Shown: positions 8,761 to 43,029 of the stretch, one piece after another | Position numbering within the stretch: the stretch's first letter is position 1 | Layout: every line of letters begins with the position of its first letter | NCBI GenBank assembly: GCA_032718475.1 | Contig: JAUCBJ010006997.1 | Location: 1-43,598 of the forward strand | Origin: Nemertoderma westbladi | Lineage: Eukaryota > Animalia > Xenacoelomorpha | Direction of reading: 5' to 3' | DNA length: 43,598 nt | Translations under genes and position numbers: made by a program | The notes under the pieces: generated by a model | Databases searched by the model: none | Told to the model about the DNA's origin: nothing | The model's input: the letters and a program-made list of their open reading frames with translations, nothing else

Positions 8761-9374
8761 GCTTTCGCACCACGCCCTTTCCTACTCAATATAATTCCTT
8801 TCTTAACTCTAGCTAACCTAGACTAACCTAAAGCTAACCTTGACTAGTTGACTAAGGTTAGGACTAAGTCGTGCCATCGTGCCGGTCTATACATTGTTTG
8901 CCAAACAGGAAAGACACTCCACAATAGAAATAGTTACATCGCCAATTGCTATTACTGTACCAATAGCGCAGTGGGGGGATTTTAATGAAGGTTCAAACTG
9001 ATATTCCACAAACATGCTGCTTATTTTTAGTTTATATTTGGCTTTAGGGTGGGTTGTAAACGCTCTTAAATGGTTTGAAACAGTCGTAATTTAGGGAAGC
9101 CAAGTCGTACCAGGTTGTAAAGGTCGTAAAATACGTAGCCAGGCTGCGATTATTACTGTATTATATCATACTTACATTTATTGCATCTTACTTTTCTCTC
9201 ATCCGGATTGCGGGTGCGTTGATTATATTACCGCGTATTAAAGGCTTGATATAAATAATAGCATTTTTTTATTTATAATGCAATACACCCCGGGCGGGGT
9301 TAATATACGCACAGTGACCGGGTAACAACAATTTTAATTGGTAAAATGAGATTAATATTACATTAATCGGGCAT

Positions 9375-12300
9375 TGTGTTATCCAGTCGGGAGAGAGTGC
9401 GGCAGAGAGCACGGACCAGGACATGGTAACGGTCCCTACAGGAGTTGTGTTAGCCAGTTGGGAGAGAGTGCGGCAGAGAGCACAGACCAGGGCATGGTAT
9501 TGGTGCCCACAGGAGTTGTGTTAGCCTGTTGGGAGAGAGTGCGGCAGAGAGCACGGACCAGGACATGGTAACGGTCCCTACAGGAGTTGTGTTAGCCAGT
9601 TGGGAGAGAGTGCGGCAGAGAGCACACACCAGGACATGGTAACGGTCCCTACAGGAGTTGTGTTAGCCTGTTGGGAGAGAGTGCGGCAGAGAGCACACAC
9701 CAGGACATGGTAACGGTCCCTACAGGAGTTGTGTTAGCCAGTTCGGAGAGAGTGCGGCAGAGAGCACAGACAAGGACATGGTAATGGTCCCTACAGGAGT
9801 TGTGTTAGCCAGTTCGGAGAGAGTGCGGCAGAGAGCACAGACCAGGACATGGTATCTATCCGCACAGGAGTTGTGTTATCCAGTCGGGAGAGAGTGCGGC
9901 AGAGAGCACAGACCAGGACATGGTATCGGTCCGCACAGGAATTGTGTTAGCCAGTTGGGAGAGAGTGCGGCAGAGAGCACAGACCAGGACATGGTATCGG
10001 TCCGCACAGGAGTTGTCTTATCCAGTCGGGAGAGAGTGCGGCAGAGAGCACAGACCAGGACATGGTAACGGTCCCTACAGGAGTTGTGTTAGCCAGTTCG
10101 GAGAGAGTGCGGCAGAGAGCACAGACCAGGACATGGTATCGGTCCGCACAGGAGTTGTGTTAGCCAGTCGGGAGAGAGTGCGGCAGAGAGCACAGACCAG
10201 GACATGGTAGCGGTACGCAGAGGAGTTGTGTTAGCCAGTTGGGAGAGAGTGCGGCAGAGAGCACAGACCAGGACATGGTAGCGGTCCGCACAAGAGTTGT
10301 CTTATCCAGTCGGGAGAGAGTGCGGCAGAGAGCACAGACCAGGACATGGTATCGGTCCGCACAAGAGTTAGTTATGTTAGCCAGTCGGGAGAGAGTGCGG
10401 CAGAGAGCACCGACCAGGACATGGTAGCGGTCCGCACAAGAGTTGTCTTATCCAGTCGGGAGAGAGTGCGGCAGAGAGCACAGACCAGGACATGGTATCG
10501 GTCCGCACAGGAGTTGTGTTAGCCAGTCGGGAGAGAGTGCGACAGAGAGCACAGACCAGGACATGGTATCGGTCCGCACAGGAGTTGTGTTAGCCAGTCG
10601 GGAGAGAGTGCGGCAGAGAGCACAGACCAGGACATGGTAGCGGTCCGCACAAGAGTTGTCTTATCCAGTCGGGAGAGAGTGCGGCAGAGAGCACACACCA
10701 GGACATGGTAGCGGTCCGCACAAGAGTTGTCTTATCCAGTCGGGAGAGAGTGCGGCAGAGAGCACACACCAGGACATGGTAGCGGTCCGCACAAGAGTTG
10801 TCTTATCCAGTCGGGAGAGAGTGCGGCAGAGAGCACAGACCAGGACATGGTATCGGTCCGCACAGGAGTTGTGTTAGCCAGTCGGGAGAGAGTGCGGCAG
10901 AGAGCACAGACCAGGACATGGTAGCGGTACGCAGAGGAGTTGTGTTAGCCAGTTGGGAGAGAGTGCGGCAGAGAGCACAGACCAGGACATGGTATCGGTC
11001 CACACAGGAGTTGTGTTAGCCAGTTGGGAGAGAGTGCGGCAGAGAGCACACACCAGGACATGGTATTGGTCCCCACAGGAGTTGTGTTAGTCAGTTGGGA
11101 GAGAGTGCGGCAGAGAGCACAGACCAGGACATGGTATCGGTCCGCACAGGAGTTGTCTTATCCAGTCGGGAGAGAGTGCGGAAGAGAGCACCGACCAGGA
11201 CATGGTATCGGTCCGCACAGGAGTTGTCTTATCCAGTCGGGAGAGAGTGCGGCAGAGAGCACAGACCAGGACATGGTATCGGTCTGCACAGGAGTTGTGT
11301 TATCCAGTCGGGAGAGAGTGCGGCAGAGAGCACAGACCAGGACATGGAATCGGTCCACACAGGAGTTGTGTTAGCCAGTTGGGAGAGAGTGCGGCAGAGA
11401 GCACACACCAGGACATGGTATTGGTCCCCACAGGAGTTGTGTTAGTCAGTTGGGAGAGAGTGCGGCAGAGAGCACAGACCAGGACATGGTAGCGGTACGC
11501 AGAGGAGTTGTGTTAGCCAGTTGGGAGAGAGTGCGGCAGAGAGCACACACCAGGACATGGTAACGGTTCCTAAAGGAGTTGTGTTAGTCAGTTGGGAGAG
11601 AGTGCGGCAGAGAGCACACACCAGGACATGGTATCTGTCCGCACAGGTGTTGTGTTAGCCAGTTGGGAGAGAGTGCGGCAGAGAGCACACACCTGGACAT
11701 GGTAACGGTCCCTACAGGAGTTGTGTTAGCCAGTTCGGAGAGAGTGCGGCAGAGAGCACAGACCAGGACATGGTAATGGTCCCTACAGGAGTTGTGTTAG
11801 CCAGTTGGAAGAGAGTGCGGCAGAGAGCACACACCAGGAAATGGTATCTGTCCGCACAGGAGTTGTGTTAGCCAGATGGGTGAGAGTGCGGCAGAGAGCA
11901 CACACCAGTACATGGTAACGGTCCCTATAGGAGTTGTGTTAGCCAGTTGGGTGAGAGTGCGGCAGAGAGCACAGACCAGGGCATGGTAATGGTCCCTACA
12001 GGAGTTGTGTTAGCCAGTTGGGAGAGAGTGCGGCAGAGAGCACAGACCAGGGCATGGTAACGGTCCCTACAGGAGTTGTGTTAGCCAGTTGGGAGAGAGT
12101 GCGGCAGAGAGCACAGACCAGGACATGGGATCGGTCCGCACAGGAGTTTTGTTAGCAAGTTGGGAGAGAGTGCGGCAGAGAGCACAGACCAGGGCATGGT
12201 ATCGGTCTGCACAGGAGTTGTGTTAGCCAGTTGGGAGAGAGTGCGGCAGAGAGCACAGACCAGGACATGGTAACGGTCCCTACATGAGTTGTGTTAGCCA

Positions 12301-12717
12301 GTTGGGAGAGAGTGCGGCAGAGAGCACAGACCAGGACATGTTAGTGGTCCGCACAGGAGTTGTGTTAGCAAGTTGGGAGAGAGTGCGGCAGAGAGCACAC
12401 ACCAGGACATGTTATCTGTCCGCACAGGAGTTGTGTTAGCCAGTTGGGAGAGAGTGCGGCAGAGAGCACAGACCAGGACATGGTAACGGTCCCTACAGGA
12501 GTTGTGTTAGCCTGTTGGGAGAGAGTGCGGCAGAGAGCACACACCAGGACATGGTAACGGTCCCTTCAAGAGTTGTGTTAGCCAGTTGGGAGAGAGTGCG
12601 GCAGAGAGCACACACCAGGACATGGTATCTGTCCGCACAGGAGTTATGTTAGCCAGTTGGGAGAGAGTGCGGCAGAGAGCACAGATCAGGGCATTGTACC
12701 AGTCCGCACAGGAGTTG
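9375..12717. repeat. 71-bp satellite array, ~47 copies
   Basis: Unit GGAGTTGTGTTAGCCAGTTGGGAGAGAGTGCGGCAGAGAGCACAGACCAGGACATGGTATCGGTCCGCACA repeats head-to-tail; one unit near 10365 has a 4-nt insertion. Confidence 0.98.
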
Positions 12718-16429: not shown

Positions 16430-16632
16430 ATATTGAGTTGGTTTATCTGTTACCTTGAAATCTCATCTCCGTCTCCAGGGGTCGTAGGTTCGAGCCCCGC
16501 TGAGGAGGCCAAGGACCTTTTCGTTTTTGCATCCTCTGAAATTTAACGGAGGTCGACTTTGATGGAAGTTACTGTAGTCGTCAGACTTTGTGCGTAATCC
16601 TTGGCCAAACGGCGAAGAAAGTTTTCTTTAAC
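16430..16632 (+). mobile_element. Decayed tRNA-derived SINE
   Basis: B box GTAGGTTCGAGCCCCGC (~16485-16500); the 3' tail GTCGTCAGACTTTGTGCGTAATCC.TGGCC is shared with 20018-20070 and 25665-25730. The 5' boundary is approximate. Confidence 0.6.
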
Positions 16633-17233: not shown

Positions 17234-19067
17234 ACATTCTTAATGCACGCTGCATTGGGCTTAAAAATTGTGGATTGCATGGTGGTGGCTAAATACTTTT
17301 GTTAAGCTGGTATAGCATCTCAATATACAGTTTCAATGCATCAGGCAGATTATTGTAGTACATGTAGTAGTATATTTATTACATATTATAATGGTATTAT
17401 AATCGGATCAAGTCGGTCCCCATGATCATCTTTATGTAGTCTAGCGCTAGCGTTTACAACGAAATCTATTTATAGTCTTAGACGAAATGTAATTTAAATC
17501 AAAAGTGGACGATATTCAGTTTCTATCTGTTGTTGGATTCTAGGAAGACACTTTACAATGTGGGTGTAATAATTGCCGTTCAGTAAATGTTTTTTAGTTT
17601 ACCTTTCGTGACACATTCTATTGTTTATTTTTTAGACGAAACCTGAGACAGGTCCTTGTGTATGTTTTCTTCCTGGTGGAAACTTGAAATATTTCGAATC
17701 GGTTAGTAAATACAGCAGGTAGCCGATACTCTATACTGTAATTATTGCTCATATGAGGATTAAAAATTAATATAGGCTTGCTGTTGGTTTGGCCTACAGT
17801 ATATTATATTTTAAAATAAATAATTAACTACATTAACGAAAATATTGTATCAGTCGGGAAAATAATGGATCATCCATCTGAAAATGACATACCTACTGTA
17901 CACTACAGTTATTGAACTGCGTGTAAGCGTGTACTCTCGTATTTACGTTGTGTCCATGACTGAGAATGACCTGGCCATGTCATACACACACACCTACTGT
18001 ACATACATGGTATTATCGTGTTGTATTAAACTCACAGGTTAATAAACAATGCATGGTATGCTGTTTTGTATAACTCGGCTTCTGACATACACTTGACTGA
18101 TATGATGTTAAGTCGACTTCGACTTTTCATTAATTGTCAGTGAAGAATGAATTCCCGATTTACAGTTGAATCACTTTTTATTGTGAAATTTCTAAGTTTG
18201 TGATAAACGGTAAAGTAAATATTACGGCAGACGAATTTGCCTGGCTCACTTACTTTATGACAACCTGTCACTTGAGTAGCGGCTAATTGACGGCAATTAT
18301 TCCTGGCAATCAATTCCTTTGTGTTTGGATAACGTATGGCGTACCGCACAGGTCCAGGTTGACTAGTTAATTTCGTAGTCGACAAACACAAGGTTGGCTT
18401 GTTTAACTTATATCGAATATTATACTGAATGTATTCCGCGTATTTTAAGGCGCATGAGAGCGTCTTTTAATTTTTAATTATAAGATTGTACAAATTGTAC
18501 TTTACTCGTGAGACCCAGGCGGCCCGGCCTTATGTCTGAAGTGAACTTCTCCATCCATAGCTTACGTTTTATTTCTTTTAGTTAAATGTTGAAAGTTGAG
18601 AGCTCATATGTGTGACGTGGGACTTACGTTGTTAGGTTATAACGGTTCACCTGATCGTATACACAGACAAGTCACTAACAACCTGCAGCCACGATGTTGT
18701 TCCACTCACCTCATGATTAAAATAAAATATAAGCCTATCGAGGGTGTAAACTCTACGCCGAAACCCAACAACGACAAAACTGCGTGGTCTTCACACTCGT
18801 TTATTGTTTTGGTTAAAATTCCCTTCAAAATTCCACTATTACCTGTTCGCTGTTCCTTTCCCATAATTATTAATTATAGGATTAATTAGCTTTAATAATG
18901 GTTGTCGCTTGTCGGTAGTAGTTGTTGTCGTTTGTCAACTTCGCGTTCACGCATAGGCCTACCATTCCAACTCATTACAGTAGGCCTACATACAGCAAGC
19001 TGACTTCATAAGTTTTTCTCCCTATAAATCATAGTCCGTAGGCCTACTGTACTAATTATACTGACGT

Positions 19068-19207
19068 TATGTAAATGGTTTTGTTCTGAAGTGGAAAAAA
19101 TGAGAAAGCGCGTAACCGGGGGTTGAACCAGCGCTATACGTACGTTTCAGCCTATCGCTATCAGGCCTCATCAGTGGCGCTAACCAGTTCAGCCACTTGT
19201 CCCTGAC
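19068..19207 (-). mobile_element. tRNA-like Pol III retrozyme/SINE carrying a hammerhead ribozyme
   Basis: A-box-like TGGCTGAACTGG (19195-19184), hammerhead, B-box-like GGTTCAACCCC (19129-19119) and T6 run (19100-19095); the 3' 45 nt match 23778-23822 at 41/45. Confidence 0.75.
19126..19185 (-). ncRNA. Type I hammerhead ribozyme with minimal palindromic stem III
   Basis: Minus strand: GGTTAGCGCCA-CTGATGA-GGCCTG(ATAGCGA)TAGGCT-GAAAC-GTAC-GTA^TAGCGCTGGTT. All core nucleotides are present (CUGAUGA, GAAA, GUH). Stem II has 6 bp including two G-U; stem I pairs with one C-A mismatch; stem III is the palindrome ACGTACGT. Confidence 0.88.
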
Positions 19208-19737
19208 ATTCACTATCCCACCTAATCCACTTCTATTGAACAGACAGTCTTAAGTTGCATATATCCTATCTCCAACAGCGGACCTACCGGCATCAAGTAT
19301 GTTAGAGTGAAACAGGAGTGAAGTACAAATAAAAAATATTCAGCTCGAGTATTGCTGCCAGGTGATATTAATTACAGAATTAATTAAACCATTACGATTT
19401 GTAGACAAATTGAGGGGGGGGGGGGGGGGGGGTACCTGAATAACGACACTATATTCCAGGACATGCTGTATACGAGTATAATAACTCCTAAATAACTCTT
19501 TCGCTAATACCTAATTTCATAAATGACACTTCCGTATTTCCACTTTCCACATGTCCTTGATATCTCTTAATTTAGAGGCATGGCATGCCGATTAATCCTT
19601 TCTTTACTCTCTTACCTTACTGATTACTGGATGACTAATGTAAATGGGTAAGGCAGTAGTCCATAAAATCAGATGCCAACCGCGCGTGCAGCAGAATAGC
19701 ATAATGGCGTCCCTAAGGTACAGATTGAAGTAATACT

Positions 19738-19878
19738 GTAGGCCAGCCTGTACAGGTGTGGCTACGCTAAGTAATAGGCCAGCCTGTATCCTCCTGGTGT
19801 TGCTACGGTGAGTAAAGGGCCAGCCTGTATCCTCCTGGTGTGGCTACGGTGAGTAAAGGGCCAGCTTGTATCCACCTG
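19738..19878. repeat. ~40-bp tandem repeat, 3-4 copies
   Basis: GGCCAGCCTGTATCCTCCTGGTGTGGCTACGGTGAGTAAAG-like units. Confidence 0.85.
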
Positions 19879-19932: not shown

Positions 19933-20072
19933 ATTTGCATCTTTGAATGGTGGCTAAATGAGTACTGGGGTTTGCTCTGGGGAGTATAGTTATAAGGGGA
20001 CCGCACTGGAAATAACTCGTCAGACTATATTTTCGTAATCCCTGGCCTAACGTCCGAAGTTAACTTTACTTC
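19933..20072 (+). mobile_element. 3' portion of a SINE (same family as 25660-25940)
   Basis: GCTAAATGAGTACTGGGGTTT.CTCTGGGGAGTA...GGGGACCGCACTGGAAATAA.TCGTCAGACT...GTAATCCCTGGCCTA matches the reverse complement of 25665-25810. Confidence 0.85.
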
Positions 20073-22289: not shown

Positions 22290-23710
22290 AACAAGTAAAA
22301 AGATAAGAAAGACTCCTGGTGCAATTAGTTGCTTCATTTCCAGTTCTTCTTGTTTGAATTATCATACCAAAACAAATTGTTTATCTATCGAAGATGAAAG
22401 TCATTTACTGGGTTAGTAATATTGAGGTGGACGGTGAATTCGCTGCGGGTAGCGAGGTGTAACCCTAGTAACAAGATCGCCACGAATCGCAGTAGGAAAT
22501 TCAACATCACCTACATCTGGAGTACAATCGGACACATCAGATGAATCATCTGATCCACATGGCGGATTATCAGGTTCAGAATCATCTAGTTGGTCATTAT
22601 CAAGAGCATCCCAATCGTAGTAAGGATAGTTGGCAGTTTGATCAACATGAGTGGAAAGTAGACTCTTTAAGGGAACCTCGTACGGGCGAGAGGCAAATCG
22701 AGAGCCGGTTAACTTCTGAACAAACACATGGTCACCTTCGATCCGAGAAACAATGTAGTTTTCCCAACAATGAGATTTATTCCCCTCAGAATTAATATAC
22801 ACAAGACTTCCAGGGTTGAGATCTGGAGTAGATGCGGAGCAATGACCACGAGCCTTTGACTTAGCACTATGAATATGACTTTTGGATCGTGCAGTATCCT
22901 TCATGTTAGTCATATCAGTATCCTCAAAATATAGTTGTTGACCAGTATAATGATCCTGTTGAAATAGGAGTTCCTTCGCAGAAAGTCCCCGAGAATGTAT
23001 CTGAGAGTTAAGGGAATCTATTACAATAGCTAAAGATAGTGGTGTAACTGGGGAACCTGTTGGGTCATAATGGAGGAGCTCACGTTCCACTTCCTGTACG
23101 CATTTTTCTCCAACGGGGTTTTTATTAATGTTTTTTATCTGTCCTAACTGTTAAGTTATCCCATGGCGTAGTAGGATGGGGTTCTTCTGTAAGGCCTGGA
23201 ATCCTGGGGCTCCATCAATTCGAACTCACATATTGGGACTACAGAAAGGCAACATAGCAATGAGGAGGGCTGTACGAAGTGCATTGGCTTTTTCATCAGC
23301 AATAATCGAGGCTGAAGTAAATGAGGATGAACAATCACAAACAACAAATATCTTCAAATATCTTCGTTAACGTTGGATCACATCAGAAGCAAATAAAGAA
23401 CATGGAATTTCTCCAAGTGGCGTGGATGATTGTTCAATCATTTCCCGAGGTGTTGCTTTAGAAACAGGCACTGTGAACAGTTATTGGTGACGGAATCAAT
23501 AGCATCTGATGAACCAATAGCCCAAAAATAACGACTGAACAGTCTCAAAAGTTGTGTCTTCAGAGGGTGGATAAAGTGAATATGTAGGGCAGTCAACTAA
23601 CCATGAACTAAAGCGAGTGGAACAACAATGAGATCACGTAAATGAACAAAGGGGTCATTTTTACAGACTACAATAAGACCATTTGAAATTGAGCAGATCC
23701 ATAAGTAGTA

Positions 23711-23832
23711 TCAGAGGTCTTTGGCATGCCTAGTTTTTCGCGATGGACGAGTTCCTTGACTGAGGTGAGCACATGCTCCGGTGATGCGCTTTCTCATTTT
23801 TTCCATTTCTGAACAAAACCATAATATTACAT
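23711..23832 (+). mobile_element. Decayed relative of the hammerhead element, inserted into Gypsy pol
   Basis: 23778-23822 matches rc(19075-19119) at 41/45. The upstream part aligns loosely (TCAG.GG, TGGC, CT.GTT, CGC.A, GACGAG vs GATGAG, CCT..AGG), but the catalytic core is degenerate and ~20 nt are missing. It interrupts pol right after ...GGQYIQ. Confidence 0.7.
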
Positions 23833-25659
23833 ATTGAATATACTGACCACCATTTAATCCTTTGATGCTATCCTCCAATGGGGATAGAAGAGAAGCATAT
23901 CCAGGAATACACAGAGATAGAGCCTTGTATGACCCTATAAATGATCTCATGGCAGAACACGTCTTGGGTGGAATGGCAGCTATCAGAGGTGAAATTTTAT
24001 GGGCACTGATGGATAGCGAACCAGAATTCCACACCCAACCAAGGATAATTGTCTGTTTTGGACAAATGGTAATTTTAGAAGCCCAAAGTCGTAGGTTGTT
24101 AAATTCCATCCACTCTAAGACAATGCGCCAATTGCTGAATAGATGATCAATGGAAGTACCTCCAATATAAAGATCATCTGCAAGTTTGCAGACAAACCCA
24201 GACTGAATGATATCACCTAATACGCGAGAAGTAAGCTCATCCAGCCACTCTGAAGAGCCGGGCATTACCATAGCACTGCGTGCATAGACCCTAATACCTT
24301 TAAATGGCGTCACTGTACCAAGAAATGGCATTGTTGATTTGGCAACTGGGATCTGGAAAAAACTCTTGGTTAGGTCTGACACAATAAGGAATGGCCAAGA
24401 AGCAATTTGACGGAGTACATCATCACATTTGGTAGACTTAGATGGTAATATACGGCAGTACTGACCAACATCATTAAACGCTGTGACAAATCGCCACCCA
24501 CCATCTAGCTTTTTAACAAGGAAACTAGGAGAAACATAAATTACGTCAATCCCAACACTCTCTGGTTTCTTTAGCACCCCCAATTCTTCAAGCTTATCAG
24601 CTTCTTCTTGTAGCTGTACAAGATTGGAGTAGTTGTAAAAGGGATGTTTCCTTTGCGAGGTGGTGATAACATTGGGCCAATGTTGACAGTGGCACGAATA
24701 ACACCACTATGGTCATTATAAGCTGAAATAGAAGGATTAAACACTATACTATATATAGTACTATATAGTATATATATACTATATATATACTATATATATA
24801 CATACTCCAGGTGGAGATTGCGAAATGCTTGAACCTGTGAGCTACCTAGTTGATTTGCAGGATCAACAGTAACTAAGGATGAATACGGAGTCTTGTAAGA
24901 CATTAATACAGTAGTATTATGGAGATGTCGAAATATTGGAAAGAGTTGGATTGGATTTAATATCATCAGCTGAAGTTACCCGCCGAAGTTGGGCAAAATG
25001 TTGAGAGCGCTTAAGCTGGGTAGGATCAGGCGATAAGTTAGGGATACAAATTGCACCATTAATTACCCTAGATATTGAGAAACGAGGCCACATACCAGAA
25101 TTACGTGAATCATTGCGTGGATCAATAAGAACATCACCTTCAAAATTCTCCATAGATGAAGCCGAAACCTCTAAGAAATCGCCAGTGAACAAAACAACAG
25201 GATTGGAACAGCGTAAAAGATATGGTTGGTTAGACAGAGGTGAAACGGAATCTGGAGACTTAGCACCACATGGCACTATAATACCTTGAATATTAAGTTC
25301 CTGCTTCTGTATACAAACCTCTATGTTGTTGCGATAAAAAAATGGGACACCACCTAGGACTTCCGAGTCCATGTTTTCAGAAACCAAAGCTTCCAAGTGT
25401 AAATCAATACCATGGAAAGATAGAGTTTCCGACACTTCACCACAGATAGTAATTTTGCCATCAAGCTGTTTTGCCTAATGATCATCCCAGCCGATTTTGT
25501 AAAAAATAAGTCACTAATAAGACACTAAATTTCCTGTGGCCCCAGTATCACATACAACCTTGCAATTATGATGTCTAAAAAAACAAAAGAAGAATGGAGA
25601 AGTCATACATAACACCCGGTTGAATGATGGACCTGGATCTGAGTGTTTGTTATTTGAAC

Positions 25660-25940
25660 TAAGTAAAAAGTAAGTAAAGTAAATTTTCTTCGGCCGCTAG
25701 GCCAGGGATTACGCACAAAGTCTGACGACTTATTTCCAGTGCGGTCCCCCCAGAACTTTACTCCCCAGAGGAAACCCCAGTACTCATTTAGCTACCACTT
25801 AAGGATGCAAGGCAGAGATGCGCCCTGGCTGGTCCCTTTAAAGCATTCGTGCCGAAACGAAAACTGCCCTGGCCCATGTGAGGATCGAACCCACGACCTA
25901 CAGGAGATGTGAATTCAATGCAACCACTACACCAAGGTGG
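25660..25940 (-). mobile_element. tRNA-derived SINE nested in the Gypsy element
   Basis: Minus strand: TTGGTGTAGTGGTT (A box), GTGGGTTCGATCC (B box), body, CACTGGAAATAAG...ATCCC 3' region and TTTAC-repeat tail. Confidence 0.85.
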
Positions 25941-27119
25941 AAAGAGGATTCATCAACTAGTAAATGGCCTAAAGATTCACTGAGTTCAGCAACTTGAACA
26001 CTAGAATCATCGTCATCTTCTATATTGATATTAAATGCTCGGGCAATATCCTGTTTGTCCCCCTTAGATAGATCCCAACAGCTAGATAGGACATTACCTT
26101 GGGATGTGCGGCCAGCACTCTTACACAGAAATCAGGATTTGGAAGATTGGCTACGATTACCGGTAGCTTTTTGGCGAAATTTTGAGCAGGGATTGGATGT
26201 CCTAGAAAAGTGCACTTGCAGTTCTTCTTGAGCGTTCATGTCAGCTAGAAGGGAATCAACTGCCTCGACAATCTGTGGTTGGATTTCCTTCAATGTCTTA
26301 GTTTTCAGGTCGTGTGCAAACACACGAGAAACATGAAGAGGAAGTCGGGGATCAATAAGCTGAAGCCATAAATAAACTGCTATGCGCTCTGTAGTTGGTG
26401 ACATTTCCTCATCATTGGTGGGTATTTGGCCATCATGGAGGAGACCAGATTCAATAGTTAGTAGGTTGTCATCCAAGTGGGCAGATATGCATTGATATAA
26501 TGTTTCATAACGTTCGTTTTCTTCCCGGTTAATGCATGCTAGCTTCAAAAAATTTACCTCAGACTGGCAGAAAGAATAGTACTTTCTAATTCTTTGCCAT
26601 ATCCAGGTGAGTGATATATTTTTCTTGATAATATCATTCCGAAGTAAAGATGGTGAGAATTGAGCAATAAGCCCTACCATGCGGTTTAGTTGAAGGCATT
26701 TTTGAGCTGCAGTACGGAAATTGCGAGCATTGGGATCAGGGTCAGGAGATAAACCACGGTTAGAACATAAATTTTTTCCCAAGTGGCATTAGGCTCAATA
26801 AATGCCACAAACTCAGAGCATAATGACAGGTGATATTGTAAATTAGTGTACGATGTAATAGTCTCGTTTTCTGAGAGAACCTGAGAACCCATTGTTTGGG
26901 GGGGTTTAAATTCAGCCATTCAGTGTACTGTTGTAGGATAATCTGTAGGCCTATAGGTAATGTAGGCTTAATTATTGCATCTACGGCCAGTTAGGCCTAT
27001 CGTTATCAATGAGTGAATCGACAAATAAAATTTATAATATATTAACATTTAATGTATATTTATCATAATCACATTATAAAATCACCCACCATAATAGAAT
27101 AATAACAATAATTAATTTA

Positions 27120-30033: not shown

Positions 30034-30668
30034 ACCCCACCCCATTCCGAACAAGTTTCTTCAACTAAGTATTTCTTCATTTTCATAAATCCATTGCCAT
30101 TGGTGATACAGGTACAACATAGCCTACTGTTGTACTGCACAGTGCAGTCAGTGTACACGACACAGTGGACAGTCATACAGTACCAGAGTACGCACTGCAG
30201 CAGTGCACTCTGACTGTCTGACCAGCTGACCCAGGTACGGTACCGGTACCAAGTACGGTGACGGCAGGCAGGCAGGCACGACGGTCTGACGCTGACGACT
30301 GATCAGCTGATGGTACCGGTGGTAGGCTAAATTTATTCAGTCTTGCTTTTACAGTTTTAGGATTTATTATAATACCTGAATACTGCAGTACAGCAGTACT
30401 GTCAGACTGTACTGCTGTAATACTGTAATACGTAAATACATATACAGACATACCAATCAGCCGATACCAGGCTGCCAGGATACTGCAGTACTGCGATAGG
30501 AGGCCTACCTGCCTACTGCGTATTACCTGAATACGGTACAATAGTCAAGTCCTACCAGCCTAGCATACTGTCAGACTGTTTGGGCCTAGGCCTATCTGCC
30601 TATACACTGCAGCACTGATACAGGTAGACGTATACTGGTATACTGGTATAACTGAATACCGGTAACAA

Positions 30669-31721
30669 ATGGCCGCTCCCGGTACCACAACATCGGTTCG
30701 TGTCCCAGAACTTCCCCACCAACTCACCGCTGACTCCGTCGGTAACATCCCATACGACAAGATCGTGGTGCACCCGCTTGTGCTACTCAGTGTGGTGGAC
30801 CACTTCAACCGGATGGGGAAAACCGGAAACGTTAAGCGTGTCGTGGGAATTCTGTTGGGAAAACAACGCGGTCGGATTCTCGACGTTTCCAACAGCTTCG
30901 CCGTTCCATTCGACGAAGACGACAAAGACCGCAGCGTGTGGTTCCTCGATCACGACTACCTCGAGAACATGTACAACATGTTCAAGAAGGTGAACGCGCG
31001 CGAGAAGATCGTAGGCTGGTACCACACCGGCCCGAAACTCAACCACAATGATATCGCCGTCAACGAACTCCTAAAGAAATACAACCCCAACTCGGTGCTC
31101 GTGATAATGGACGCGCAACCGCGGGACGTGGACGCGTTGGGGCTGGGGTTGCCGACGCAAGGCTACTACTCGGTAGAGGAAGTCCACGACGACGGCACGC
31201 CGACGAGTAAAACCTTCGAACATCTCGCCAGCGAGATCGACGCCGACGAAGCGGAAGAGGTCGGTGTGGAGCATCTACTGCGGGACATTCGGAACACAAC
31301 GGTCGGGACATTGGGACAGCGGGTCTCGGGACAGCTGAGCGGACTCCACGGACTCTTTAAGACTCTCACCGACATCCAGGGATACTTAGAGCGCGTCGCT
31401 ACTGGTAGACTCCCCGTCAACCATCAGATCGTCTACATGCTCCAAGACGTGTTCAACCTCCTCCCTTCCATCGAATCCCCCGATTTCATTCACTCGTTTA
31501 ACCTAAAGAACAACGACCAGATGTTGGTTATCTATCTCGCGGCTCTCATCCGATCGGTGATCGCCCTCCACAATCTTATTAATAATAAGATCGAAAACAG
31601 AAACAACGAAGACTCCGAGAAATCCAAGAAGAAAGACGAGAAGGATAAAGAAACGGTTAAGGAGGATAAAAAGGATAATCCCAATGTAAAAACTAAAGAG
31701 GAGGAGAAAAAGAAGAAATAG
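30669..31721 (+). CDS. PSMD7: 26S proteasome non-ATPase regulatory subunit 7 (Rpn8/MOV34), intronless CDS
   Basis: MPN domain [69 protein letters not shown]; [13 protein letters not shown]; KEKE-rich tail; AATAAA near 31820. Confidence 0.98.
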
Positions 31722-37340: not shown

Positions 37341-37868
37341 TTACCCATCCAGGGTTTCCCTATCGAATATATATTCTCCCAGCCCATCTCCGACCCTCTT
37401 TAGATTGGTTATATGATCCCCGAGTTCCTTAATCGACTTAACCTGCTCCTCCAGGTATTCCTCTTCGATAAAGTCGCAGAATTGCGCGTCGTTATGTTTG
37501 CTGGCTATACCGTGCAACTCCAACAGGGCCGTATTCACCTCCCGCTCCAACTCCAAGGCGGACTGCATCGCGCTCAGTCCCGTACCCCAGTCGTCCTTGG
37601 ATGGCTTCTTGATATCGGACATAACGCAACGACCGCCCCGTTTATTCTGGTACGCCATAAACTTATCGGCGTGTTCGCGTTCCTCTTCCGATTGCTTTTT
37701 AAAGTATTTTGAGAATCCCTTTAGCGCCACATCGTCGCGGTCGAAGTAGGAACCCATCGACTGGTAGACGTAACTCGCGTAGAGTTCCATGTTGATTTGT
37801 TTATTCAACGCATTTTCGGATTCTTCGTGGAAGTTTTGTCGACATTGCGATGTTGTTATGGATGACAT
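37341..37868 (-). CDS. Ferritin (cytosolic, H/soma type), intronless CDS
   Basis: [84 protein letters not shown]; ferroxidase residues present; no signal peptide. Confidence 0.98.
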
Positions 37869-38337
37869 TATGAATTTCGATGGAAACTGTAATGCTTCTT
37901 GGATTTATAGTGATTAAAATTAATTAGGCCTACTGAATTAGTGAATTGCTACTACAGTATAGTAGGCCTACTACATTACCGGTACCGGTATAAAATTAAA
38001 GTTATTACTGTATTATAGGACTGAGTCAGGGTCACTGGGTGTAAACGATAAGCAGAAACCGACAGACGCCTACGACAAATACAGAAATATGAAACTGTAA
38101 CCTGTGTTCTTGTCCCTTATTTCAGTATTTATTGTTTTGGTTAAAGCCTGTAACACATGTTGATGTTCCTTACCCTCAATTAATAATCTAATGAATTTAA
38201 TGAAATTAATGAATTATATAATTAATATAATTAACAATAAGTTGCATCTGCCATCCGCTTTGGTTACTGGTATTGCATTTCTAATGACCCGCGGGCACTA
38301 AATTCCATACTGCCATAGACATTAGGCCTAGTGCAGT

Positions 38338-40393: not shown

Positions 40394-41780
40394 AGTGCAG
40401 TAGTGCTAAAATAAAAATTCTGGGTCATCCACTACAGCACTAAGGCGCCTACTGTACCGTAGTGGTCCAACAGAAACATATTATAAATCATAAATGGTTA
40501 TAATGGAGGAAAGAAAAGCGGAACAAAAGGAGCGTTGTTGGTTTCCAGGTTTACCCTATTACTGTAAAGTCAAGCGAAATACCAGCCAGCGTGTTACTGT
40601 GTTAGGCCTATTGCAGTATTGCTACTAATTTAGTATTTCATGTGCTACTGCAGTACTGTACTGTACACGCAGCTAAGAGAAGAAGAGGACAAATTTGAGA
40701 ATTACACAGCATGTTATAGGCCTATTTAAAATAATACGGATTGTTGTGTAACTTGTAACAGTACCAAATTTTCCGGTTGCTGCTACCAAGGTAATAATTA
40801 CACAGCAGATGATGGTATTGACACATGGGAGGACCAGAATACGTGTAAATTGCAGACATACACGCTTTTTTATGTTTTTAATCCGTAGGCTTACAGGGCC
40901 AAGGGGTTCTAAATAATAGATACAAGGTATCAGGTAGAATTTGCAGGTCTACCTTTTATTTTACCTGAGCCGCTAACAGAATGGTTAGAGCGTCAGACTT
41001 CCAGACAAATATATATGCTGTATGATTCTATTACAGTTTCCGGTGGCGCGGTGGCGGCGTAGCAGCAGGCTGCAGCCTGCTCCTCACAGCAACCTCACAA
41101 CAGAACAGGTTTAAACTTGCGTCCAAAATGTATTCTGTATTCTACGTGTAAATCTACAGAATGGCAGTTATGTGTGTCGTAACTTGAAGTTAATATATGG
41201 CTGATTGGCTAAAAGCTCCAACTTATACAACAACAAAGTTCACAGAGATTAAAAAGCTCTGTGTAAATATCACAAACTAAAACGTCCAATAGCAAAAGTC
41301 AAAGTTATACTTATCTTCAATGTATTCATCCTTCTGTAGTTGAATTAATATTTATAAAACAAATATTGTAGACTACAGGGAGAACATAAAAATTAAAGAT
41401 GCAATAGATAACAACAATGACCTTGATGAGATGACGCAATGTCATGATTAAGATAACACGGGACTGGGATCCGGATGGTTGGATGCAGTTATAGTTGTAA
41501 ATTACTGTATGTGACCTACAGTACAGTATAATGTTTCAAAACGGTTTTAAGATTCGGACTCTGCAGATGAAGGCGGTTCTAATGATATCTAAGATTACCT
41601 TCCAGAGTCGAAAATAAACCCAACAGAGATGGTAACATGTTCCTAGATAGATATTTTTTAACGGTGTATTTATTAAATTATAAATTAATCTGATATTGCT
41701 AAAAAATAATAATGTTAGCGTTGGATTGTTTTGGTAATGATATGTAATAATTTTTGTGCGATACTGTAGCCTACAGTACT

Positions 41781-41910
41781 TACGGTGGCTGAATTGTGCC
41801 ACTTAATACTTTTTTTTATTTTTTTTTTGAAGCGACTTTTTGGTCGACCAAAAAGTCCCTTAAAAAAATAAATAAAAAAAAGTATTAAGTGGCACAATTC
41901 AGCCACCGTA
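41781..41910. mobile_element. 130-bp near-perfect palindromic MITE (IS3EU-type ends)
   Basis: TACGGTGGCTGAATTGTGCCACTTAATACTTTT...GGTCGACC...AAAAGTATTAAGTGGCACAATTCAGCCACCGTA, flanked on both sides by AGTACT (6 bp). Confidence 0.85.
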
Positions 41911-43029
41911 AGTACTTGTATAGCGAATCTTGAGATAATAATTAATAGAACCAAAAGTCTATCATTAACAACCCTATTTAAAATTTGATTTAATTAAAAT
42001 TTAAAAACAACCCTAAAAAAATTTTAAATTTAAAATATAATATATATATATCAAGTCCCAGGCGGCGCGGCGCAGGGGCGCCGGAAGCACGGGGGCAGCT
42101 GCCCCCCCTGCCCTTACGACAGGGGGGCAGGGGGGGCAGCAATGTGCCCCTCCAGAATTAACTCACACAACGGAAACGGCCCACACTATCTGACTATTAA
42201 TTAATATATGTAAAATCGTTGCAAAAATGTTAAAGTTACATTAGCAGCCAGACCAGATAGGATTCACTGGTGGCCAAAGGAAGGTTAACTTTAGCTAAAT
42301 ATAAGAAGACTCCATCTAATCCATCTAAATGTTGTAGCCCTAAGCCATATTACCAATAATGACCCCCCCCCCCCCCCCCCCAACCTCGGCCCAGTCCTCC
42401 TCCGTGTATGATATAAAATCAAGTTCATAGAAAGCCAGCCTATCTCTACCACAGCATAGTAGTCTGTATATGGCCTTGTGACTTGGACAATGGAAGCAAG
42501 GGGAGACTAATTGACCACAGATGTTCAGCACGGTGCGTACAGTGTACAATTGGGAACAGCTTTAACTCCACCTATGTTCAATATACCAATGTAAGATACA
42601 TGTACCTACCTCAATAGTGATGTAATCTTATTGAAGGGCACTACAGGTGCACGAGGCCAATATGTGGTCTGATTGGACACTATGGACAGAGTTGTTTAAG
42701 TCGCTGGTTATGTATAATGTATGCAGTTATTATGTAATAACAGTTCTGTTAATCGTTTTGTCAGATTTCATACTGTCATATTGGCGTCATAATCATAATA
42801 TTATTACTGTTTATTACTGAAGATTTCGATTTATTAATTATTATAATTAATTAATAATATATAATAAATAAAATAAATTATTACAATTATTACGTTTACT
42901 GCACCATATTTGGTTTTAATTTTCTTTTTATGATATGATATTACAAAATGTTTTATGTTTTAGCGAGGTTAATACAGGGTCGAGAGAATATTGAAAAAAA
43001 AATTCAACTTTTTTTTTCTATTTAATAGG

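Follow-up and report, generated by a model that had tools for sequence, protein, structure and literature searches.

A type I hammerhead motif between A- and B-box-like motifs in a high-copy repeat of Nemertoderma westbladi

A hammerhead ribozyme motif flanked by tRNA-like promoter boxes raises the question of what kind of element carries it. We asked this of a locus in contig JAUCBJ010006997.1 (assembly GCA_032718475.1) of the xenacoelomorph Nemertoderma westbladi; the whole stretch analysed, 43,598 nucleotides, is called the window here. The DNA is of animal origin: it holds intact ferritin and PSMD7 frames with many animal matches, the best at ~74-75% identity. PSMD7 (30666-31721, plus strand) and ferritin (37341-37904, minus strand) each occupy one unbroken frame, and are thus intronless genes or retrocopies. 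The window also holds a 71-bp unit in 47 tandem copies (9374-12717; 92% matches) and a near-perfect (96%) inverted repeat of 142 bp (41775-41916). Pieces of a dispersed repeat, probably an ordinary tRNA-derived SINE, lie at 16487-16610, 19935-20071 and 25672-25891, with B-box patterns at 16487 (plus strand) and 25891 (minus strand). A broken LTR-retroelement-like remnant at 22413-26788 on the minus strand gives a weak RVT_1 match (E 7.5e-5) that falls below cut-off.

The hammerhead motif lies on the minus strand and is described here in that direction. Its core CTGATGA (CUGAUGA in RNA; 19174-19168) is followed by helix II and its loop (19167-19149; in the window copy the basal pair is G-U and the loop is the longer of the two alleles), by GAAAC (19148-19144), by the palindrome ACGTACGT (19145-19138), which would form a 2-bp helix III with a GUAC loop, and by the triplet GTA (19139-19137), with the predicted cut between 19137 and 19136. 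In helix I, a 5′ strand at 19181-19175 pairs over 7 bp with a 3′ strand at 19136-19130, by sequence and predicted fold alike; a C-A mismatch (19176 x 19135) is found in the window copy only. CUGAUGA, GAAA and UH are all present, and the three helices stand in type I order. Upstream of the core is an A-box-like motif, TGGCTGAACTGG (19195-19184), which fits the consensus TRGCY..YGG taken from the description of Helenus TRIMs (PMC10886601) and part of which is predicted to pair with the B-box-like motif GGTTCAACCCC (19129-19119) beyond the cut site. A T6 run resembling a Pol III terminator follows at 19100-19095. A first-pass annotation of this DNA had proposed such a core, with a T6 after the boxes. 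All of its motifs are found where it placed them, the T6 beginning 18 nt past the B box. A type I descriptor (core, helix II of at least 4 pairs, helix I with 5 of 6 pairs, helix III closing pair) matched this site alone in the window and nothing in 300 dinucleotide shuffles of it. The Rfam check that the annotation named gave no match at the gathering score over the whole window; in 18900-19400 Hammerhead_3 matched weakly, at 17.7 bits and E 0.56 against a cut-off of 48.5.

Canonical animal hammerheads have a helix I of 6 bp, a helix II of 4 bp and a helix III of 1-2 bp with a palindromic loop, and the minimal hammerheads of Penelope elements have a long helix II, a short helix I and a bulged base before helix II (PMC4209133, in its accessible text). 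In the Nemertoderma repeat helices I, II and III have 7, 5 and 2 bp, the last with a palindromic GUAC tetraloop, and neither a long helix II, a short helix I nor an unpaired base 5′ of helix II is seen. By helix geometry the family is of the canonical animal type I class, with cleavage predicted from the sequence. Of the earlier label "minimal type I", type I was right and minimal was not, as 7/5/2 bp fits the canonical class of PMC4209133. According to the available part of PMC7229834, canonical motifs are tied to non-LTR retrozymes of 150-450 bp that make RtcB-ligated circles, and helix III of invertebrate retrozymes consists of 2 bp and a tetraloop. In the same source, invertebrate retrozyme monomers cleave alone and amphibian ones cleave better as dimers; a dimer is thus possible but not required for the hammerhead family.

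The motif belongs to a high-copy repeat. Six public runs under one organism label, present as contigs only, were taken as DNA; three of them (X1, X3 and X5, three samples from three studies) hold the stretch, and the best-matching run may be the window's own source. Mapping at 80% likeness placed 1,022 (X1), 1,839 (X3), 75 (X5) and 2 (X4) contigs on 18980-19320, and 688 (X1), 1,111 (X3), 60 (X5) and 0 (X6) on 19165-19800; X4 and X6, with so few contigs, carried no information. Summed contig depth at 19176 was 56,568 in X1 (flank 14-17) and 114,150 in X3 (flank 14-39), values that are no copy number and are taken here to mean only "thousands" of times flank. Depth delimits the window copy as 19374-19069 on the minus strand (~1e4-1e5 in the two deep runs vs 14-39 and 3-5 outside), so the annotated extent of 19068-19207 was too short. 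The repeat family postulated there is borne out by high-copy contigs in three runs, with no core substitution of 3% or more listed. A short, separate repeat of very high copy lies ~55 nt from the hammerhead copy, at 19429-19472 beside a run of 20 G (summed contig depth 1.8-4.1e4 vs 17 in X1).

The window copy is 5′-truncated and lacks ~12 nt of the family 3′ end, with loose contig ends at 19075 and 19374. On the 3′ side, 41, 40 and 4 contigs (X1, X3, X5) agree over ~22 more letters and then diverge; on the 5′ side, 13, 23 and 3 contigs share 9 more letters, and the X1 and X3 consensus runs to 19. High depth over ~19070-19374 and the further shared letters at both sides together give a family unit of at least ~335 nt, which is within the retrozyme range of 150-450 bp (PMC7229834). 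The family reaches ~180 nt upstream of the A box (19374-19196, by contig depth) and ~45 nt past the T6, its common 3′ end lying ~84 nt past the predicted cut site. A second, short 3′ fragment of the family (23778-23832, 55 nt, plus strand; 86% likeness over 56 nt, E 4e-13) sits within the LTR-retroelement remnant. Both window copies are 5′-truncated and end in TTACAT at the 3′ side, and the second, which also has the T6, likewise runs past it. Two stop-free frames in the upstream part and one across the ribozyme gave no Pfam match at E 1. The family is non-coding in these three frames, has a GC content below 50% and is present in high copy.

Past the family 3′ end we did not find a poly(A), a simple-repeat tail or a primer-binding site in the diverging contigs, and no repeat of 7 nt or more, as a target duplication would leave, was found round the junctions of the window copy, which is itself truncated at both ends. 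Tandem copies were not found within the window. One contig gives a possible head-to-tail sign, running from 19367 back to 19165 at a depth of 15 with its middle unread. Joints between opposite strands make up seven of the 15 joints listed, out of 21, on 18980-19320 and four of 13 on 19165-19800 (nine distinct); each is a single contig per run and, at 80% likeness, may be spurious, belong to other repeats or reflect alignment breaks. One such joint falls exactly at 19136 in X3 and X5, but as one of 21 joints, with its orientation not given, it may be there by chance. The cluster of joints at 19139-19148 is most simply explained by alignments breaking at the loop II indel.

The contigs also tell which features of the window copy are its own. 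At 19176 the pairing base is present in 99.8% (X1), 99.8% (X3) and 100% (X5) of depth; the C-A mismatch is therefore private to the window copy. The base of helix II is G-C in 52%, 58% and 81% of depth in the same runs, and loop II is shorter by 6 nt in 38%, 24% and 86%. Alleles other than that of the window copy account for 99.8%, 99.7% and 72% of depth at 19114, for 76%, 48% and 98% at 19200 and for 55%, 28% and 82% at 19209. Within the core, the B box and the T6 no substitution of 3% or more is listed, although a missing entry proves little. In X5, four extra nucleotides are inserted where helix I meets the core in one contig (depth 1,108 of 2,783), and a variant at 19132 disrupts a pair in 5.6% of X5 depth. 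An A to G change at 19141 (2.4-17% of depth) would leave dimer pairing in place as G-U. These are contig allele shares per position, unlinked, and the changes seen are one-sided only.

Family versions of the repeat were built by script from contig alleles, three of the six alleles (19200, 19209 and the short loop) not being the majority in every run. In the window copy the fold constrained to the hammerhead lies 5.8 kcal/mol above the minimum; putting in the two near-fixed alleles narrows the gap to 2.5 kcal/mol, and putting in all alleles narrows it to 1.8. This agrees with the earlier remark that this copy may be weakened by its C-A mismatch. The constrained energy is -25.9 kcal/mol without and -34.3 kcal/mol with four of the family alleles, a gain equalled by 3 of 1000 random sets of four changes; that of the two near-fixed alleles alone is equalled by 44 of 1000. 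In the model, helix I pairs with a probability of 0.90-0.96 when family alleles are used. With all alleles the predicted structure continues from the 7-bp helix I through a GGUU bulge into a 6-bp helix between the A and B boxes and an outer helix, the 3′ strand of which is 19115-19110, paired with 19209-19204. The feature that bears on a tertiary contact between loops 1 and 2, this 4-nt bulge beyond the seventh pair of helix I, is predicted when five common alleles are used and absent with the two near-fixed ones, and the outer helix has a probability of 0.96-0.98 with the former vs 0.22 with the latter. As probabilities drop to 0.2-0.3 without the 19200 and 19209 alleles, the distal helices are a model and not a result. 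Compared with shuffles, 19108-19209 is only modestly stable in its allele-repaired form (z -1.8; 14 of 300), and the window copy (z +1.1) is not stable.

Helix III has a probability of 0.02 in the monomer model. For allele-repaired molecules the predicted dimer is a double hammerhead with an 8-bp helix III (-83.8 kcal/mol vs -72.8 for two monomers), which is not the predicted dimer for the window copy. The idea that such motifs work as dimers thus gains from the model, where the double hammerhead is the minimum-energy dimer for family alleles. With the family allele, the two helix I strands (19175-19182 and 19129-19136) are near copies of one self-complementary 8-mer, and so are direct repeats as well as complements. 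This arrangement could ease strand exchange in a dimer.

The reading that we favour, and hold to be reasonably probable, is that the locus is a degraded, 5′-truncated copy of a non-LTR retrozyme family that is likely moved by Penelope-type enzymes and consists mostly of dispersed truncated copies. Long transcripts would arise by read-through or from rare tandem master loci and would be cut after GUA, either by the monomer fold or by a double hammerhead through the palindrome ACGUACGU. A host ligase of RtcB type may then join the cut units into circles, as in the retrozymes of coral, mussel and axolotl, and a Penelope-type reverse transcriptase that starts at a fixed 3′ end would leave truncated, sometimes inverted copies. 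Mobilisation by Penelope enzymes, which the first-pass annotation also suggested, is plausible given truncated copies with a fixed 3′ end and inverted joints. Inverted truncated copies and an optional tail are described as typical of Penelope-like elements (PMC8557442, accessible part). It has been argued that retrozymes derive from Penelope elements and are non-autonomous; the fraction of solo copies ranges from 0 to 1 among them, and families with mostly solo copies exist (bioRxiv 10.64898/2026.07.22.740005, in the portion available). Several points count against this reading. The tandem arrangement, which is the defining retrozyme feature, rests on one contig; no autonomous Penelope element turned up within the window; the modest fold stability, the minority share of some alleles used in the model and the low helix III probability in the monomer weigh against it as well; a T6 inside the unit is awkward for any multimer driven by Pol III; and animal retrozymes seem to lack promoters (PMC7761336).

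The closest competitor takes the repeat for the 3′ terminal repeat of an autonomous Penelope-like element with a captured tRNA promoter, most copies being truncated 3′ ends of it. The fixed 3′ end, 5′ truncation, inverted joints and short optional tail are Penelope traits (PMC8557442), and the family 5′ end lies beyond the mapped stretch, which leaves room for a longer element. We nevertheless regard this origin as unlikely. The hammerheads of animal Penelope elements, as PMC4209133 describes them in the part at hand, are minimal and this one is canonical, and two stop-free frames in the 180 nt upstream of the A box were without a Pfam match. No RT/GIY-YIG ORF was seen next to the window copy, which is itself 5′-truncated.

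How the boxes are to be understood bears on the remaining readings. In the window copy they are 66 nt apart from start to start, a workable spacing. By chance, a given site has a probability of ~4e-6 of being flanked by an A-box pattern on its upstream side and a B-box pattern on its downstream side, each at no more than 40 nt, a figure that overstates the significance because the patterns were picked post hoc and the two boxes are partly complementary; for the same reasons the chance of a B-box pattern alone within 40 nt, ~9e-4, is the safer one. The window has four B-box patterns against ~1.9 expected per shuffled window. An ordinary retrozyme might come to look like this if the boxes were a by-product of helix I pairing, with neither tRNA ancestry nor Pol III activity. 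The boxes are not independent of each other, as UGAAC in the A box is the complement of GUUCA in the B box; there are 13 A-box patterns in the window; and Rfam found no tRNA in 18900-19400 up to E 10, nor did ARAGORN at default settings. Relaxing ARAGORN to -ps85 gave 40 matches across the window, which we discarded as noise. A cloverleaf-like fold was also rejected: it has no acceptor stem and, when forced, reaches -19.5 vs -34.3 kcal/mol, ~15 worse. The earlier placement of the ribozyme at the position of an anticodon arm is therefore correct as to its site between the boxes and fails as to the tRNA fold around it. The by-product reading has to contend with the low chance of the B box and with the TGG at both A-box ends and the T6, which pairing leaves unexplained. 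The sole common A-box variant, an A to G change at 19188 in 5-15% of depth (one listed variant), leaves the motif intact and keeps the pair as well. Taken together, we consider this account quite improbable. On the retrozyme reading favoured above, the core was likely built into a tRNA-derived ancestor that supplied the boxes, and these likely persist both as helix I and as Pol III promoter. Judged from the sequence, a Pol III RNA of ~115 nt, from ~19209 to the T6, could be made from the hammerhead repeat.

A more specific version of the retrozyme reading has the element built inside a tRNA gene, with its promoter split by its own predicted cut site. With all of the products that follow included, we rate it as unlikely. 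An RNA running from cut to cut would start with the B box and end with the A box, so that a working promoter would be regained only across a re-ligated (circular) or uncut junction. Each intact copy would also yield a 115-nt Pol III RNA that cleaves itself once, where a tRNA has its anticodon. At the nick its ends would be chemically the same as those of a cut pre-tRNA; the RNA may be an RtcB substrate, and it may also act in trans as the partner strand of a double hammerhead.

A tRNA-derived SINE of 115-140 nt, retrotransposed in the form in which Pol III transcribes it between boxes and T6, would account for the correct order and spacing of A box, B box and T6, and the predicted outer helix closes exactly this unit. 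Summed depth is also greatest at 19112-19135, just 3′ of the predicted cut site. Since depth falls toward the shared 3′ end and tracks mismatches to the window copy, however, this profile follows contig likeness to that copy and cannot rank the parts of the repeat. Against a short SINE, depth is thousands of times flank over 180 nt upstream of the A box and past the T6, and the second window copy likewise extends beyond the T6. Where such a SINE should start at the tRNA head, at least 180 nt of family sequence lie upstream of the A box. A Pol III transcript of 115-140 nt thus cannot be the copied template, and the proposal of a ~140-nt SINE as the mobile unit gives way to a family of at least ~335 nt that passes both sides of the A-box-to-T6 unit. 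We therefore think a short SINE very improbable. Least probable of all is the solo LTR of a Helenus-type miniature LTR retrotransposon, with tRNA boxes in its LTR, that gained a hammerhead: Helenus has the same box motifs internally and LTRs of up to ~320 bp (PMC10886601, accessible part) and both window copies finish near a CA, but the family runs ~13 letters past that CA without a primer-binding site, the apparent junctions have no 4-5 bp target duplication, and inverted joints are not an LTR trait.

Relatives were sought by pattern scans of mainly prokaryotic collections. The strict pattern found none in viral contigs and none in metagenomes; a looser one found 117 metagenome loci (80 with full flanks) and six viral loci, none combining helix I, helix II and the A box. 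One genome match and eight viral matches in these collections lack the split-box architecture and were set aside as chance. Four metagenome contigs (L016, L030, L043 and L082) carry an unrelated hammerhead-like motif, type III-looking, near contig ends. In the main texts of openly available papers, we found no hammerhead described as lying between an A and a B box.

The literature describes animal retrozymes as promoterless, and in SM-alpha cutting costs the promoter its position, so that how animal retrozymes are transcribed is an open question. Promoter halves that flank the cut site and double as helix I would offer a compact test of a Pol III-driven retrozyme, and a split-promoter family would also test for selection for circle formation. 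If this reading is true, the repeat would be an example from nature of a ribozyme set into a frame of tRNA origin; should the boxes be inactive, it adds a further retrozyme family from an animal that has received little study.

Among known systems, the Nemertoderma repeat shares with animal non-LTR retrozymes (PMC7229834; bioRxiv 10.64898/2026.07.22.740005; both in their accessible portions) the non-coding state, a length of 150-450 bp, a GC content below 50%, thousands of copies, a canonical type I hammerhead with a 2-bp helix III and tetraloop, and no LTR features. It differs in that retrozymes are described as promoterless in the available text of PMC7761336, whereas here boxes flank the core and a T6 follows. 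With the terminal repeats of Penelope elements (PMC4209133; PMC8557442; accessible parts) it has in common a type I hammerhead near a fixed 3′ end, a palindromic helix III, 5′ truncation and inverted joints. Unlike them, it has canonical helix sizes and tRNA boxes, no bulged base before helix II and no ORF that we found. Helenus TRIMs (PMC10886601) resemble it in that A and B boxes of tRNA origin are embedded in a longer repeat that has no functional cloverleaf. In the Nemertoderma repeat, an LTR pair, a primer-binding site and a short target duplication were not seen, and the accessible part of the Helenus description mentions no hammerhead. The Schistosoma repeats SM-alpha and Sj-alpha (PMC6765202, PMC2770079; accessible parts) are high-copy elements that likewise combine a tRNA-type Pol III promoter with a canonical type I hammerhead. 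In SM-alpha the Pol III promoter comes first and the hammerhead after it (PMC6765202), so that cutting leaves the promoter complete, at the 3′ end of the unit. In the Nemertoderma repeat, in contrast, the predicted cut falls between the boxes, the B box lies downstream, and helix I, as predicted, is made up in part of the boxes. The combination of a Pol III promoter with a hammerhead is thus already known from SM-alpha, and a predicted cut site that splits the promoter is the unusual point.
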